A stretch of 64,000 bases of DNA from an uncultured Chloroflexia bacterium. Its GTDB lineage: Bacteria; Chloroflexota; Limnocylindria; QHBO01. The notes under the pieces were generated by a model that had not been told where the DNA came from, did no database searches, and saw only the letters and a program-made list of their open reading frames with translations. Where the stretch lies: NCBI GenBank assembly GCA_963704115.1, contig CAVPGY010000001.1, positions 459,062-523,061 on the forward strand, read 5' to 3'. Below are positions 9,796 through 14,466 of the stretch, in pieces. The position numbers and the translations under genes were made by a program. Within the stretch, counting starts at the first letter, position 1; every line of letters starts with the position of its first letter.

Positions 9796-12223
9796 TCAGC
9801 GGGTCGGGCGCTCCCGGTCGCTCATCTCGAGGATGTCGAGCATCGGCAGGTCGCGCTGGTACTCGCTGAACTCGAACTCGGGTCCGCAGCGCAGCGCGTC
9901 GTACGGGCAGGCATCGGCGCAGATGCCGCAGAAGATGCAGCGGGACACGTCGAGCTGGTACGTCTCCAGGATGCGCGGCCGCGGCATGAGCGCGCCGACC
10001 GGGCAGGTCTCGGCGCATCGGCCGCAGGAGACGCACGGCGTCTCGTTGAGGGACACGAAGTCGGCGGTGGTGACGAGCGAGTCGAAGCCCTTGCCGATGA
10101 AGTCGTAGCAGCCGGCGCCGACGATCTCCTTGCACACCTGGGCGCACCGGCCGCAGTCGATGCAGCGGGAGTAGTCGCGCAGGATGAAGGAGTGCGTCTC
10201 GTCGCGGCCGTAGCCGTGGTTGACGCCGACGTACGGGTTGTCCTGGATCGAGCGCTCGTCGATCGCCATGTTCAGCGTCGTCTCGTACTCGATCGCCGCC
10301 TCGCGCAGGTCGCAGTGGCCGATCGCCTCGCAGGTGCACTGCAGGCAGCGCGACGCCTCGGCCATGGCCTGGTCGCCGGTGTAGCCGAACTCGTACTCGT
10401 TGAAGTTGTCCGACCGCCCCTCCGGGCCGAGCTTGCCCATGATCGCGCGCGGCTCCTTCACGTCGTCGGTGAAGGGCACGATGGTCAGGAAGTTCGGCTG
10501 CGGCTCGGTGACGATGCGGCGCACCTGCGGGTCGTCGAGGTCGTGCCCGCGCAGCCAGTAGTCGATGGCGTAGCTGGCGCGCCGGCCCTCGCCGATGGCC
10601 TCGACCACTGTCGCGGCGCCGGTCCGGACGTCGCCCGAGGCGAACACCTTCGGGACGTCGGTGCGGAAGATGTGCTCCTCGGCCACCAGGGTGCCGCGCC
10701 GGCTGATCTCGAGCTTCGAGCGGATCTCCTCCGGCTCGGCCTCGACCCAGGAGAGGTCCGGCCCCTGGCCGATGGCGCCCAGGACGGTGTCGCACTCGAC
10801 GATGAACTCGGTCCCGGGCATCGGCTCCGGGCGGCGGCGACCCTGCGCATCGGGCTCGCCGAGCTTCATGCGCTGGAACTCGACGCCGGTGACCTTGTTG
10901 TTGTCGTCGGTGACGATGCGGGTCGGTGCGGCCTGGAAGATGACGCGCGCGCCCTCCTCGATCGCCTCGTGGACCTCGTCGGCGGCCGGCATGTCCTTCA
11001 GGTCGCGGCGGTAGACCAGGGTGACCTCGGCCGAGCCCTGGCGGACGGAGGTGCGGGTGCAGTCGATGGCGGTGAAGCCGCCGCCGATGACGACCACCTT
11101 CGCGCCCTTCAGGCGCGGGATCGGGATGCCGCGCGTCGAGTTGTAGAGGTTCTCGAGCGCGTTCACCACGCCGTCGGCATCCTCGCCCGGGATGCCGAGC
11201 TCGTTCGGCTTGTAGCAGCCGATGCCGACGTAGACGGCGTCGTAGCCGTCGTCCAGGAGATCGGCGATGTGGAAGTCGCGCCCCAGCCGCATGTTCGGCT
11301 TGAGGGTCGCCCCGAGCTCCCAGACGTGGTTGAGCTCGCGGTCCATCCACGACTTCGGGCAGGCGGTACTGCGGGATGCCGTAGCGGAGCATGCCGCCCT
11401 GCTCCGGCTCCGCCTCGAACACGTCGCACTGGTGGCCGCGCAGCTGAAGGTAGTACGCGGCGGCCATGCCGGCCGGGCCGGCGCCGATGACCGCGACCCG
11501 TCGCCCGGTGGCGGGCTCCTTCGGCCACGGGATCGGGGCGGGGGCATCGACCTCGAGCACGCGGTCCGCGCAGTAGCGGTGCGAGTCGCGGATCGCGATG
11601 GCGGTGTCCACCTCCTCGCGCCGGCAGTGCGTCTCGCACGGAGCGGGACAGACGCGGCCGAGGATGGCGGGGAACGGGAGCGAGCGCTTGAGGATGCGCG
11701 TCGCCTCCTCCCAGTTGCCCAGCGTGTTCTGCTTCAGGTAGCCCGGGATGTCGACGCGGGTCGGGCATTTGAACTGGCACGGGGGCAGGCAGTAGGCGTC
11801 GTGGTCGCTGAAGATGAGCTCGAGCACCATGCGCCGGTTCTCGATGACGCGATCGGAGTGGGTGGTGATGACCATCCCCTCCTCGATCGCGGTGCCGCAC
11901 GAGATCGGGGTGTCGTCGCGCCCCTCGACCTCGACCGCGCAGATGCGGCAGGCGCCGTACGGGGCCAGCTTCGGTTCGTAGCAGAGCGTCGGGACGTCGA
12001 TGCCCAGCACCCGGCAGGCCTGGAGGATGGTCTGGCCCTCCTCGGCCTCGACCTGCGTCCCGTTGATGGTGACGCTGATCGTGCGGGTGCCCGGCACCAT
12101 CGGCCACAGCGGCGTGTAGTCGGCGACGTGGTCGTTCTTGCCGTACGTCCCGTTCCCGGCGTTGCTCGCGCCGTTGCCGTTGCCGTTGCCGGCCGCGTGG
12201 CCGTTCGTCGTTCCGAAGCCCAT
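9796..12223 (-). CDS. nuoG: NuoG-like Fe-S subunit chimera: [2Fe-2S] domain, GltD-type FAD/NAD(P)H oxidoreductase domain, further Fe-S motifs, C-terminal half of NuoI (one frame break)
   Basis: ATG at 12223 with an AGGA RBS. N-terminal [2Fe-2S] region: TLCYEPKLAPYGACRICAVEVEG..ISCG. Then LELIFSDHDAYCLPPCQFKCPTRVDIPGYL...GRVCPAPCETHC and VAVIGAGPAGMAAAYYL...GGMLRYGIPQYRLP, both GltD-like. Removing one G at 11357-11359 continues into ORF 9796..11547 (KVVVIGGGFTAIDC, FASGDVRTGAATVVEAIGEGR). Downstream motifs are RCLQCTCEAIGHCDL, RCIDCGRCAQVC and [17 protein letters not shown]. The tail is NuoI-like: [38 protein letters not shown]. No molybdopterin-like domain. Confidence 0.8.
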
Positions 12224-12229
12224 CGGTTC

Positions 12230-13607
12230 CTACTCTAACGGGGTCGTCGCCGGCTGCCGGATCGAGCCCGGCCAGCGGCTGGAGGAGGGGGGCGACCTCG
12301 CTCACCCGGCACGCGCCGGCCAGGCAGACGCCCCGTTCGGCGTGCGCGCGGTACTCGTCGCCGAAGCGGTCGAGCGTGGTGAGGATCGGTCCGGGAGCCA
12401 GCCGCTCCAGCTTGCAGAGCGCCGTGTCGCTCATCTTGGCGGACAGCTCGCGGAGCAGTGTCGGGTCGTTGGGGCGCGGGGTGGCGGCCAGGATGCGGTC
12501 CATCGTCTCGACCAGCCGCTTCGTGCCGATGCGGCACGGCACCGCCTTGCCGCACGCCTCGCGGGCGCTGAAGTCGATGAAGAAGCGGGCCGTGTCGACC
12601 ATGCAGGTCTGGCTGTCGGTCACCAGCACCGATCCGGAGCCGACGATCGCGCCCTCGGCCTCGAGCGTCTCGTAGTCGTACGGAATCGTCAGCGAGCCGG
12701 CGTCGATCGCGCCGCCGCCCGGGCCGCCGATGAAGAGCGCCTTGGTGGCGCCGGTCCCACCGCCCGCCATGGTCAGCAGTTCGATGAGCGGCGTGCCGAA
12801 CGGCACCTCCACCAGCCCGGGTTCGGCGACCCGACCCATCACGGTGACGAGCTTCGTGCCACGCGCCGACTCGCTGCCGACCGAGGCGAAGGCGTCGGCG
12901 GAGTGGGCGATGATCCAGGCCGCGTGCGCCAGGGTCTCGGCGTTCTGCACCACGGTCGGCGCGCCGTCGAGGCCGTGCGTGGCAGGGAACGGCGGACGGA
13001 TGGCCGGCATGCCGCGGTCGCCGGCAAGCGCGTTGATGAGCGCTGTCTCCTCGCCGGCCACGTACGCGCCGGAGCCTTCCCACACCGACAGCTGGATGCT
13101 CACGTCGGTCCCGAGCACGAGGTAGCCGGCCAGGTGCGCCTCGGTCGCCTCGCGCGCCGCGGCGCGGAGACGCTCGATCGCGACCGTCCAGTCGCGGCGG
13201 ACCGCGACGATCGCCTCGGATGCGCCCGTGGCGTACGCCGCGATGAGCAGCCCCTCGACGACGAGGTGCGGGTTGCCCTCGGCCAGGGCGCGGTCACCGA
13301 GCGCGCTGGGGTCCGCGGCCATCAGGTTGGCCACCACGATCCTGCGGTCGGCCTCGGTGTCGCGCGCGGCGCGCCACTTGGCGGCGGTCGGATATCCGGA
13401 ACCGCCGCGACCCCGCAGCCCCGCGGCCTCGATCTCGAGGATCACCTCCTCCGGGGCGAGCTTCGTCACCGCCCGCTCGAGCGCGGCGTAGCCGGAATGG
13501 TCGCGGTAGCTGGCCAGGCTGGTCGGGTCGACGCGGCCGATGTCGGTCAGCAGCCGCGGCTCGCCGGAGGGCAGGATTCGGATCTGCGGGGAGATGGTGC
13601 TCGTCAT
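12230..13607 (-). CDS. nuoF: NuoF-like subunit (divergent cofactor motifs; 3' end uncertain)
   Basis: The ATG at 13607 overlaps a TGA (ATGA). Motifs present: MTSTISPQ..., GLRGRGGSGYPTAAKW, GSGAYVAGEETALINAL, RPPFPATHGLDGAPTVVQNAETLA, ACGKAVPCRIG, ALCKLERLA. As given the frame has no stop. Removing one C from the C6 run near 12285 ends it at TAG 12230-12232, 6 nt before the next ATG. Confidence 0.8.
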
Positions 13608-14466
13608 CGGCCGGCGGTCCCCGACGCCCCGGCGCTTGCGACGCCTTGCTCGTGCGGCTCGCGCGACGGCGCTCCTCGACGACGTGGAGCGCCTTGTCGG
13701 CGTCGACCGGCCCGTAGACCAGCGTGTCGATGCGAATGGCCGGGCTGATCGCGCCGGCCCCGACATCGGGCCGCGTCTCGAGGCTGAAGGTGCCATCGGG
13801 CGTGGTCTCGCCCGCCCGGATGCCGAGCTCCGACTCGATGGCGCGAAGCACGGCGTCCCCGCCGCTGAAGCGGCACGAGGCACAGTCGCACACGGTGATG
13901 AGGTGCCCGGTCGCCGGGAGCAGGCGGAAGCCGCCGAGGCCCGCCGCGCCGAACACCTGGGCCCAGTGGATCGTCATCCGGTCGCTGATGCGTCGCAGCG
14001 CGCGCTCGGGCAGGTAGCCGTACCGCTCCTGGACGGCGCCGAAGATGGCGACGAGTGCCTCGGCACGTCCGCCGAAGCCGTCGACGATCTCGTCCACGGC
14101 CGGGGTGTCGATCTCCTCGTCCCAGCGCGCGGGGTTGCGCATCGGACGGGCGGCCAGCCCGGCGCGACGGTAGGCGTTGGGGTCACGCCGCTCGTCGTAG
14201 ATCTCCGGCATGCCGTAGCGGATCCGGTTGCCCTCCGAGTCGAAGCCGCTCATGTCGATCGCCTCCACCGGGCAGACCTGGGCGCACTGGAAGCAGACCT
14301 CGCACTTGTGCTCGCCGAACGGGTCGTAGATCAGGTCGAGCCGACCGCGCCAGCGGTCGGGGATCGGCGGCCGCTCCTCGGGGTACTGGCGCGTCACCTT
14401 CGGCGCGAAGAAGTTCTTGAAGGTCGTCGCCATGCCCTTGGCGATGCCGAGCCCGGGGAAGGTCAT
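13604..14466 (-). CDS. nuoE: fusion of the N-terminal half of NuoI (one 4Fe-4S motif) with a NuoE-like thioredoxin-fold domain
   Basis: ATG at 14466 with a GAGGA RBS after the nuoH stop. NuoI-like start: GIAKGMATTFKNFFAPKVTRQYPEERPPIPDRWRGR...KCEVCFQCAQVCPVEAI...RIRYGMPEIY. The same frame then runs into NuoE-like sequence: ALVAIFGAVQERYGYLPERALRRIS...HLITVCDCASCRFSGG...TTPDGTFSLE...SPAIRID. As given there is no stop before 13294. Removing one G from the G4 run near 13630 ends it at TGA 13604-13606, overlapping the nuoF ATG. Confidence 0.8.

Follow-up and report, generated by a model that had tools for sequence, protein, structure and literature searches.

A complex I operon of Limnocylindria in which NuoI is encoded in two halves on either side of an Nfn/Stn-type cassette

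Two NuoI halves and the cassette between them

The window analysed here is a 64,000-nucleotide stretch of contig CAVPGY010000001.1 (assembly GCA_963704115.1) from an uncultured bacterium of the Limnocylindria. It carries a nuo operon for complex I in which the coding sequence of NuoI is divided. The gene order is A-B-C-D-H-[I(N)::E]-F-[G'::I(C)]...J-K-L(-M-N), with nuoA to nuoD, nuoH and nuoJ to nuoL confirmed by tblastn. The first half of NuoI is fused to a NuoE-like domain (gene 1, IE), a NuoF-like gene follows (gene 2, F), and the second half ends a large iron-sulfur flavoprotein (gene 3, G'). Coordinates are given in Table 1. The same order had been proposed from the letters of this stretch alone (the sequence-only reading), and it is found again in clean assemblies of relatives.

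From position 14466 gene 1 reads MTFPGLGIAKGMATTFKNFFAPKVTRQYPEERPPIPDRWRGRLDLIYDPFGEHKCEVCFQCAQVCPVEAID... on the minus strand and continues in frame into the NuoE-like domain. Its N-half consists of the NuoI-specific N-terminal region (GIAKG...KVTRQYPEE...RWRGR) and the strand that follows the first cysteine motif, M0. In comparisons with the NuoI family models (TIGR01971/NF004536), residues 11-87 of gene 1 match positions 1-76 of the 121-position TIGR01971 (E=4e-16), and the C-terminus of the open reading frame (ORF) ending at 9796 matches positions 71-112 (E=2e-15). One NuoI profile is therefore matched by two ORFs in complementary parts, in line with the sequence-only reading, and the NuoI half missing from gene 1 is indeed found in the last ~60 residues of gene 3. 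The two matches score 58.6 and 56.4 bits, so neither half reaches the full-family cut-off of 113, and each of the two proteins has a single NuoI-type motif. The N-half also matches the TYKY/NuoI chains of solved complex I structures (E=5e-14) and aligns to residues 6-71 of Thermus Nqo9 (2fug_9). The C-half, which has the second motif type CIFCGxCxxxCP and the NuoI C-terminal tail, aligns without gaps to Nqo9 residues 73-126, with its motif M3 on C98-P109. Because the halves map to these two segments, the split point is placed in the loop that joins the two parts of the ferredoxin fold, at about Nqo9 72-86.

The halves lie ~4.3 kb apart in the window, with intact conserved genes between them. 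A six-frame scan of the whole 64 kb found only four CxxCxxCxxxC motifs, M0 to M3, starting at 14304, 10164, 10035 and 9939. No frame hides a second motif near the N-half, in agreement with the sequence-only reading, and the window has no other NuoI-like gene.

Both NuoI halves are under purifying selection. Against L001, the 286-kb contig of a Limnocylindria metagenome-assembled genome (MAG; GCA_036262075.1), the ratio of nonsynonymous to synonymous differences (pN/pS) is 0.13 in the N-half, 0.09 in the C-half and 0.02 in the M1-M2 region, with pS of ~0.24-0.29. A set of 25 diverse IE proteins, with identities down to 28%, shows no change in the four cysteines and the proline of M0. In 38 G' proteins every cysteine of M1, M2 and M3 is invariant.

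The sequence-only reading had described the genes between the halves as a nuoE/nuoF/nuoG-like cassette. The nesting stands, but the cassette is not plain NuoEFG, since its best matches in the PDB are Nfn/Stn proteins. NfnABC/StnABC is a Bfu-family electron-bifurcating transhydrogenase (PDB 9BOV, 8OH5 and 9N5U; PMC11829005, PMC7483475). NADPH reduces the flavin adenine dinucleotide (FAD) in the NfnL/GltD-like domain of NfnA, and a flavobicluster of flavin mononucleotide (FMN), B1 and C1 bifurcates to NAD+ and ferredoxin (PMC11829005).

The best solved relatives of the NuoE-like domain of gene 1 are HydC and NfnC chains. This domain has the thioredoxin-like fold of NuoE/NfnC and lacks the full four-cysteine set of the [2Fe-2S] cluster (N1a/C1) in the window. 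Ligands 3 and 4 are replaced by Asp and Gly, TRPDVGAGAISP, in a residue alignment to 9bov_C, 7p5h_C and 8a6t_C.

Gene 2 aligns to 9bov_B with E~1e-123 over chain residues ~105-526 of 584, and also to 8oh5_B and 9n5u_B. It matches the NuoF/BfuB model TIGR01959 at E=9e-101, with 337 bits against a cut-off of 559. Relative to 9bov_B, the NfnB segment VVCNADEGDPG reads VVANLMAADPS in gene 2 (NADE to NLMA), and SCGKCTYC reads ACGKAVPC (CGKC to CGKA), so that one N3/B1 cysteine is gone. Two domains present in Bfu proteins, a thioredoxin-like one at the N-terminus and a 2x[4Fe-4S] one at the C-terminus, are also missing from gene 2. Most of the glycine-rich and GEETAL motifs are kept.

Gene 3 is 93-94% identical to its intact 798-aa ortholog in L001. 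Residues 38-762 align to residues 2-699 of the 1178 in 9bov_A, the Caldicellulosiruptor NfnA, at E=9e-169, and there are further matches to 8oh5_C (2e-152) and 9n5u_A (NfnA; 4e-140). In its GltD/NfnL domain the motifs of the FAD site (GAGPAG...GGMLRYGIP), of the NADPH site (GGGFTAIDC...VYRR) and of two 4Fe-4S clusters (Fer4_20) are all intact, with identity to 9bov_A at the level of the FAD and NADPH motifs. The 2Fe-2S site and the M1/M2 domain are intact as well. M1 and M2, spaced by 32 residues, together match the whole ferredoxin domain of NfnA, StnC and HydA. The NuoI C-half starts ~10 residues past M2, and G' ends ~60 aa past M2. The NuoG model TIGR01973 matches residues 51-145 only, on positions 1-95 of 606; next comes the GltD insertion, and the large C-terminal domain of NuoG is missing. 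Neither PF00384 nor PF04879 matches G', and the Fdh/NuoG-like C-terminal domain of NfnA, with cluster A7, is missing. Judged by its domains, the cassette belongs to the Nfn/Stn type of Bfu module and includes a GltD/NfnL FAD-NADPH domain.

Frame correction, gene boundaries and neighbouring genes

The window has ~70% G+C, and the ORF map is rich in long spurious ORFs. When the proteins of L001 were aligned to it by tblastn, single-base indels were seen at ~1/kb across 1-24 kb. Nearly every gene compared there changes frame, including unrelated housekeeping genes, and the genes are spread over two to four frames, among them nuoA, nuoC, nuoD, nuoH and nuoL. There are several frame changes each in nuoC and nuoL and two in nuoH, near 14912 and 14842. 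Because nearly every gene is affected, the frame changes are assembly errors and not biology. The window looks like an unpolished long-read-type assembly in which ORF-based readings need frame correction, and this indel density probably extends over its whole length. Pseudogene decay was considered as the cause of the frameshifts and is ruled out by this density in nearly every gene compared, together with the strong purifying selection on substitutions.

Three of the indels lie inside the split-NuoI region, at ~13650, ~12243 and ~11359. The ORF boundaries given earlier for 9.7-14.5 kb thus needed three corrections, though the three genes and their order are intact in clean relatives. Uncorrected, gene 1 continues to 13294. 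Its true stop is reached only through the frame change near 13650, and it then overlaps the start of gene 2 by ATGA. The proposal of a NuoI N-half with one motif and an in-frame NuoE-like domain is upheld by TIGR01971 and PF01257, and only the stop at 13604 depends on this correction. A 93% identical homolog of gene 1 (P0001) ends in ...ASGTAGR, which is the end read in the alternative frame. The uncorrected frame of gene 2 has no stop before 11163; a 1-nt deletion near 12243 lies two codons ahead of the true stop TAG at 12237-12235. In gene 3, a 1-nt insertion at ~11359 (CCC for CC) splits the ORF over two frames, and the match to PRK12814 runs unbroken across it, from model positions 3-245 to 246-631.

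Table 1. Features of the split-NuoI operon in the window, after frame correction
Feature	Position	Strand	Evidence
nuoA, nuoB, nuoC, nuoD (context)	15502..18481	-	tblastn with L001 proteins
nuoH (context), directly upstream of gene 1	14483..15495	-	three L001 NuoH high-scoring segment pairs in three frames; ends ...VVVFDL and stop at 14483
Gene 1 (IE): NuoI N-half :: NuoE/NfnC-like thioredoxin-fold domain	13604..14466	-	translation, PF01257, TIGR01971, homologs
NuoI N-half, aa 1-95	14182..14466	-	TIGR01971 positions 1-76; Nqo9 residues 6-71
Motif M0 CEVCFQCAQVCP, sole 4Fe-4S motif of gene 1	14269..14304	-	six-frame motif scan
NuoE/NfnC-like domain of gene 1	13672..14094	-	PF01257, aa 125-265, E=1.7e-24
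Gene 2 (F), reduced NuoF/NfnB-like	12235..13607	-	PF01512, PF10531, PF10589; ATG at 13607
Gene 3 (G'), NfnA/StnC-like Fe-S flavoprotein ending in NuoI C-half	9796..12223	-	PRK12814; 9bov_A; L001 ortholog
N-terminal [2Fe-2S] domain Fer2_4, equivalent to N1b/A1	11855..12085	-	PF13510 E=1e-20
GltD/NfnL-type domain	10543..11836	-	PF14691, PF07992; alignment to 9bov_A
HydA/NfnA-type 2x[4Fe-4S] domain: M1 CIDCGRCAQVC (10132..10164) and M2 (10000..10035)	10000..10164	-	PDB alignments, motif scan
NuoI C-half and stop codon	9796..9984	-	TIGR01971 positions 71-112; Nqo9 residues 73-126
Motif M3, inside NuoI C-half	9904..9939	-	six-frame motif scan
nuoJ	7173..7610	-	tblastn with L001 proteins
nuoK	6864..7166	-	tblastn with L001 proteins
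nuoL, several frame changes	4636..6850	-	tblastn with L001 proteins
Two antiporter-like ORFs, putative nuoM and nuoN by position only	~3055..4629, 1585..2781	-	ORF map and G+C at third codon positions (GC3)

Between G' and nuoJ there is a 2.2-kb gap (7640-9796) with no clear gene. It holds a 458-aa minus-strand ORF with no Pfam match and weak codon bias, and a 290-aa plus-strand ORF (8532-9401) with moderate GC3. At the same place L001 has two unrelated small hypothetical membrane-like genes on the opposite strand, and nuoJ directly follows G' in a second Limnocylindria clade and in Thermoleophilia. Elsewhere in the window, at 61670-63592 on the minus strand, one 641-aa frame encodes Mur-ligase M and C domains (FolC-like) and a pterin-binding (DHPS-like) domain. 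This may be a real fusion, or two neighbouring folate genes joined by an indel or a missing stop in noisy high-GC sequence.

Distribution in relatives

The L001 contig encodes IE (277 aa), F (457 aa) and G' (798 aa), all intact, in the order nuoA-B-C-D-H, IE, F, G', two opposite-strand genes, nuoJ-K-L-M. In the second Limnocylindria clade (clade B; L085/L086), nuoABCDH-IE-F-G'-JKLMN is contiguous on the 2.19-Mb contig_1949 of ERZ25039462, and two Proton_antipo_M genes follow nuoL in L085. The NuoB cysteines of cluster N2 (CC...C...C) and the His/Tyr quinone-site motifs of NuoD are intact in L001 and L085, and from these residues the Q-module looks functional. NuoH of clade B (L085 6387-7778) is called at 463 aa, as against 336 aa in L001, which may be an N-terminal extension or an over-long call.

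In the protein database IE has 705 homologs. The best 120 of these are 273-289 aa long, with 80-93% identity and ~100% query coverage, and those that are named are mostly 'Candidatus Limnocylindria'. An exhaustive search of representatives clustered at 50% identity found IE-type fusions down to 29% identity. The homologs of G' form a close clade of ~795-811 aa and a second clade of ~850-890 aa at ~60% identity, labelled Limnocylindrales or Chloroflexota, which shares the NuoI C-half ending. The database names are 'NAD(P)H-dependent oxidoreductase subunit E', 'FAD-dependent oxidoreductase' and 'formate dehydrogenase major subunit', and the NuoI halves are unrecognised in them. Many of the IE relatives in the database (P0244, P0256-P0287, P0280, P0320) either combine real sequence with high-GC junk read in a wrong frame or extend into the following gene, and neither the length nor the domain list of such an entry can be relied on. 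The shorter N-half matches P0256-P0287 were considered as unsplit NuoI and rejected, as they are fragments or frameshifted translations of the IE type.

We also scanned the GTDB species genomes with an alignment of three IE sequences. The scan returned 80 loci, half of which are ordinary Firmicutes NuoE/HydC that match the E domain only. Full-length IE matches occur in ~40 MAGs labelled Thermoleophilia or Actinomycetes. Local annotation gives the order nuoD-nuoH-IE-F-G'-nuoJ-K-L for the Thermoleophilia loci, whose contigs include some of 1.2-2.1 Mb. The F protein of these loci has the canonical NADEGDPG and CGKCVPC motifs, and it is a BfuB with the N-terminal thioredoxin-like and C-terminal 2x[4Fe-4S] domains (L012, L037 and others; ~8760-10680). 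Of the four cysteines of the [2Fe-2S] site in the E domain, Thermoleophilia keep all and clade B keeps three. Clade B shows losses that resemble those in the window. The core Bfu features (the terminal domains of BfuB and the flavobicluster FMN-B1-C1) are missing or degraded in the window, in L001 and in L085, and complete in the Thermoleophilia orthologs. By these motifs, Thermoleophilia have a complete Bfu core, and in Limnocylindria only the GltD/NfnL entry site is fully intact. The Thermoleophilia forms may thus be genuine bifurcating or confurcating complex I variants.

Two further loci come from unplaced lineages. The first, L087 (59% G+C), has nuoD-H-IE-F-G' and the altered motif CGRCIPG. 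The second, L003 (Logan SRR22388304_190100, 1321-6023; 49% G+C), has shuffled domains and the same two NuoI junctions. Its order is nuoH-IE-[NuoE-NuoF-GltD, 1048 aa]-[HoxU-like::NuoI C-half, 265 aa]-nuoJKLMN, so that GltD lies at the C-terminus of NuoE-NuoF, and its E domain keeps all four cysteines. When the HoxU-like::NuoI-C protein was used as a query against the protein database, only two full-length relatives were found, and the rest were truncated NuoG-/Fdh-like proteins without the tail. This sub-type is rare.

The C-half is present in every checked locus that reaches at least ~4.8 kb downstream of the N-half, and it lies ~4.7 kb after it. No locus checked has a two-motif nuoI, and none has a nuoI between H and J. 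The architecture is thus conserved across at least two phyla. The sequence-only reading had asked for relatives with the same order, and these are supplied by the two Limnocylindria clades, the ~40 Thermoleophilia MAGs and L087, with the same junctions in L003; in none of the relatives examined is the split undone by a single ORF with both motifs.

These relatives bear directly on whether the split is real. The window has ~1 indel/kb, three of them within 9.8-14.5 kb, and an artefact or pseudogene, produced by frameshift or misassembly in a genome with one ordinary nuoI, would have to be considered from this assembly. We regard that explanation as extremely improbable. The clean relatives have the same three genes with the same junctions, and these ends are shared by hundreds of database proteins (273-289 aa and ~796-890 aa). 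In addition, the separation of the halves by 4.3 kb of intact conserved genes and the pN/pS of ~0.1 speak against it.

The pair of half-motifs is also found outside complex I. Locus L088 (ENA ERZ27313369 k141_249327, 97-7726; 70% G+C) is devoid of nuo genes. Its genes for a POR delta-like ferredoxin and for a POR alpha subunit precede those for three Nfn/Bfu-type proteins. These are a half-ferredoxin::NfnC-like protein (P0291), which is an IE homolog without the NuoI N-terminal helix; a complete BfuB, with the complete core Bfu features; and an NfnA-like protein of 1060 aa in which M1, M2 and M3 are followed by what was read by eye as a putative POR-beta-like thiamine pyrophosphate domain. In this locus the split ferredoxin apparently joins an Nfn-type Bfu module with a 2-oxoacid:ferredoxin oxidoreductase. 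Since M0 and M3 travel together in another enzyme context, L088 supports their functional pairing, and it suggests that the split ferredoxin serves as a portable connector by which Bfu modules are coupled to differing partner enzymes.

The same locus gives some weight to a different explanation, namely that the cassette of the window is a separate soluble Nfn-like transhydrogenase inside the nuo operon and that complex I has its NuoI encoded elsewhere or is non-functional, because a closely related cassette is paired with POR there. However, the NuoI-specific N-terminal region is kept in every nuo-linked N-half and is missing in the POR-linked version. Furthermore, nuoH-IE-F-G'-nuoJ are joined by ATGA and short overlaps, there is no nuoI between H and J in the loci checked, and the insertion point is identical in two phyla. 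We consider a separate transhydrogenase very unlikely.

Assembly, electron path and comparison with known systems

In a 2x[4Fe-4S] fold, each cluster takes its fourth cysteine (that of the CP pair) from the other motif. Since M1 and M2 already make up a complete two-cluster domain, M3 is left without a cis partner, and IE offers none for M0. Pairing of M0 with M3 in trans is therefore the most plausible arrangement. We think it likely, from the sequences, that the ferredoxin fold holding N6a and N6b in this variant complex I is assembled from two polypeptides, with electrons probably entering from NADPH. The NuoI halves would meet in trans and rebuild the 2x[4Fe-4S] fold, and each cluster would be held by three cysteines of one chain and a single cysteine of the other. 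This would amount to the insertion of a Bfu-type module into the NuoI loop at Nqo9 ~72-86. The rebuilt NuoI would take the place that the Fdh-like domain has in soluble NfnA, beside the final cluster of the A chain and the point where the C subunit begins. Both the start of the C-like subunit and the end of the A-like subunit would run into NuoI.

Some observations weigh against this assembly. The spacing of 21 residues between M2 and M3 is typical of clostridial ferredoxins, and several PDB matches align M2 and M3 to both motifs of NuoI or of polyferredoxins, E. coli NuoI and polyferredoxin chains among them. On these grounds M2 and M3 could form a 2x[4Fe-4S] domain in cis, or M3 could bind a single extra cluster, and the N-half of IE would then be a mere docking anchor with one cluster or none. 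AlphaFold 2 gives the NuoE-like domain of IE a predicted local distance difference test score (pLDDT) of 80-96 and the NuoI half 37-68. For the G' monomer (38-row alignment) the mean pLDDT is 52, with residues 595-796 below 50 and the tail below 30. This low confidence in the G' tail and in the NuoI half of IE could reflect the need for a partner and could equally reflect a shallow alignment. Nevertheless, we judge that trans-assembly being absent is unlikely. A pairing of M2 with M3 would orphan M1, since M1 and M2 match the complete ferredoxin domain of NfnA, StnC and HydA. It would also leave the invariant cysteines of M0 unexplained, down to 28% identity, given that the fourth cysteine serves the other cluster. 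M0 and M3 always co-occur among the loci checked, including the non-nuo L088, and the residues that flank M3 are NuoI-specific.

Entry from NADPH is proposed because F and E have lost the FMN-site Asp, an N3/B1 cysteine, two [2Fe-2S] ligands and the ferredoxin-reducing domains, while the GltD/NfnL domain and the clusters of G' are intact. In the lineage of the window, electrons would then pass from NADPH to FAD, through the 4Fe-4S chain of G' to N6a/N6b, N2 and quinone, with F and E kept mainly as scaffold. The Thermoleophilia form may use NADH, ferredoxin and NADPH. Weighing against this proposal, the loss of FMN and N3 is read from few residues in F, and a 3-Cys cluster and a remodelled FMN site are possible.

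Alternatively, what Schut et al. proposed for Nuo-Bfu could apply to the lineage of the window, with a fully active bifurcating or confurcating enzyme that uses NADH at FMN together with ferredoxin. F retains the NfnB fold (E=1e-123) with most of its glycine-rich and GEETAL motifs, and the Thermoleophilia relatives have the complete Bfu core. Yet, in comparison with solved NfnB and NfnC, the window and L001 have neither the B3/B4 ferredoxin domain nor the N-terminal domain, they have NLMA for NADE and CGKA for CGKC, and of the four C1 ligands two are replaced. The defined bifurcation site requires FMN, B1 and C1 (PMC11829005). A fully active form is therefore quite unlikely in this lineage.

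A broader proposal, which builds on entry from NADPH, is possible and is offered only tentatively. This would be a widespread complex I of soil bacteria, in Limnocylindria, Thermoleophilia and others, that gained its input module independently of NuoEFG, through an Nfn-type Bfu cassette inserted in nuoI, and that has a two-chain N6a/N6b fold. The Limnocylindria enzyme would be a proton-pumping NADPH:quinone oxidoreductase with F and E as dead scaffolds.

NuoI is among the most conserved core subunits of complex I, itself a textbook example of modular evolution. A naturally split NuoI that clamps a different input module would, if confirmed, be a further way of docking an electron-input module, and it would be a rare natural two-cluster ferredoxin fold assembled from two chains. 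If the GltD/NfnL domain is the entry point, the result would be an NADPH-linked proton-pumping complex I, and to our knowledge no such enzyme is well established. This would change redox-balance models for abundant soil and freshwater lineages. Given the current annotation names, metabolic reconstructions could report NuoI and NuoG as missing. We found no description of a split NuoI or of such an operon type in full-text searches of the freely accessible literature. As far as that literature shows, this is an undescribed complex I variant that is conserved in more than one phylum.

Canonical NuoI (Nqo9/TYKY/NDUFS8) shares with the window the N-terminal region, both CxxCxxCxxxCP motifs, the C-terminal tail and the place between nuoH and nuoJ. 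The difference is that the motifs of the window are on two polypeptides, ~4.3 kb and three protein domains or genes apart, and that each half is fused to another redox protein.

In comparison with NfnABC/StnABC, G' corresponds to NfnA residues 2-699 (2Fe-2S, FAD-NADPH, Cys/His clusters and 2x[4Fe-4S]), F to the NfnB core and E to NfnC. However, the Fdh-like C-terminal domain of NfnA (A7) is swapped for the NuoI C-half, and the NfnC-like part gains the NuoI N-half. In the lineage of the window both terminal domains of the NfnB-like protein are missing, and degeneration has affected B1, C1 and the FMN site. In addition, the genes of the window are inside a nuo operon and the complex is presumably membrane-bound.

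Closer in genomic setting are Nuo-Bfu, predicted in Deferribacteres, Proteobacteria, Planctomycetes and Nitrospirae by Schut et al. 2022 (PMC9304861), and NUO-2 of Nitrospina and Kuenenia, whose NuoF2 is without an FMN site (PMC3578206). Like the window, they have a Bfu-type module in place of NuoEFG in the middle of a nuo cluster, and they provide a precedent for a NuoF homolog without FMN. The consulted text of both descriptions (PMC9304861, PMC3578206) mentions neither a split nuoI nor a GltD/NfnL domain, and the clades named there exclude Chloroflexota and Actinomycetota.

The 11-subunit forms of complex I with alternative input (NDH-1, Fpo with FpoF, Mbx-like) similarly combine a conserved Q/P-module with a lineage-specific input. 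In Mbx-like operons a GltD-like flavoprotein replaces the NuoI homolog (PMC4758237, PMC3144371), so that these operons share with the window a GltD-type flavoprotein attached at the NuoI position. In the window, by contrast, NuoI is neither replaced nor intact, but is cut, with both ends fused to the input module.

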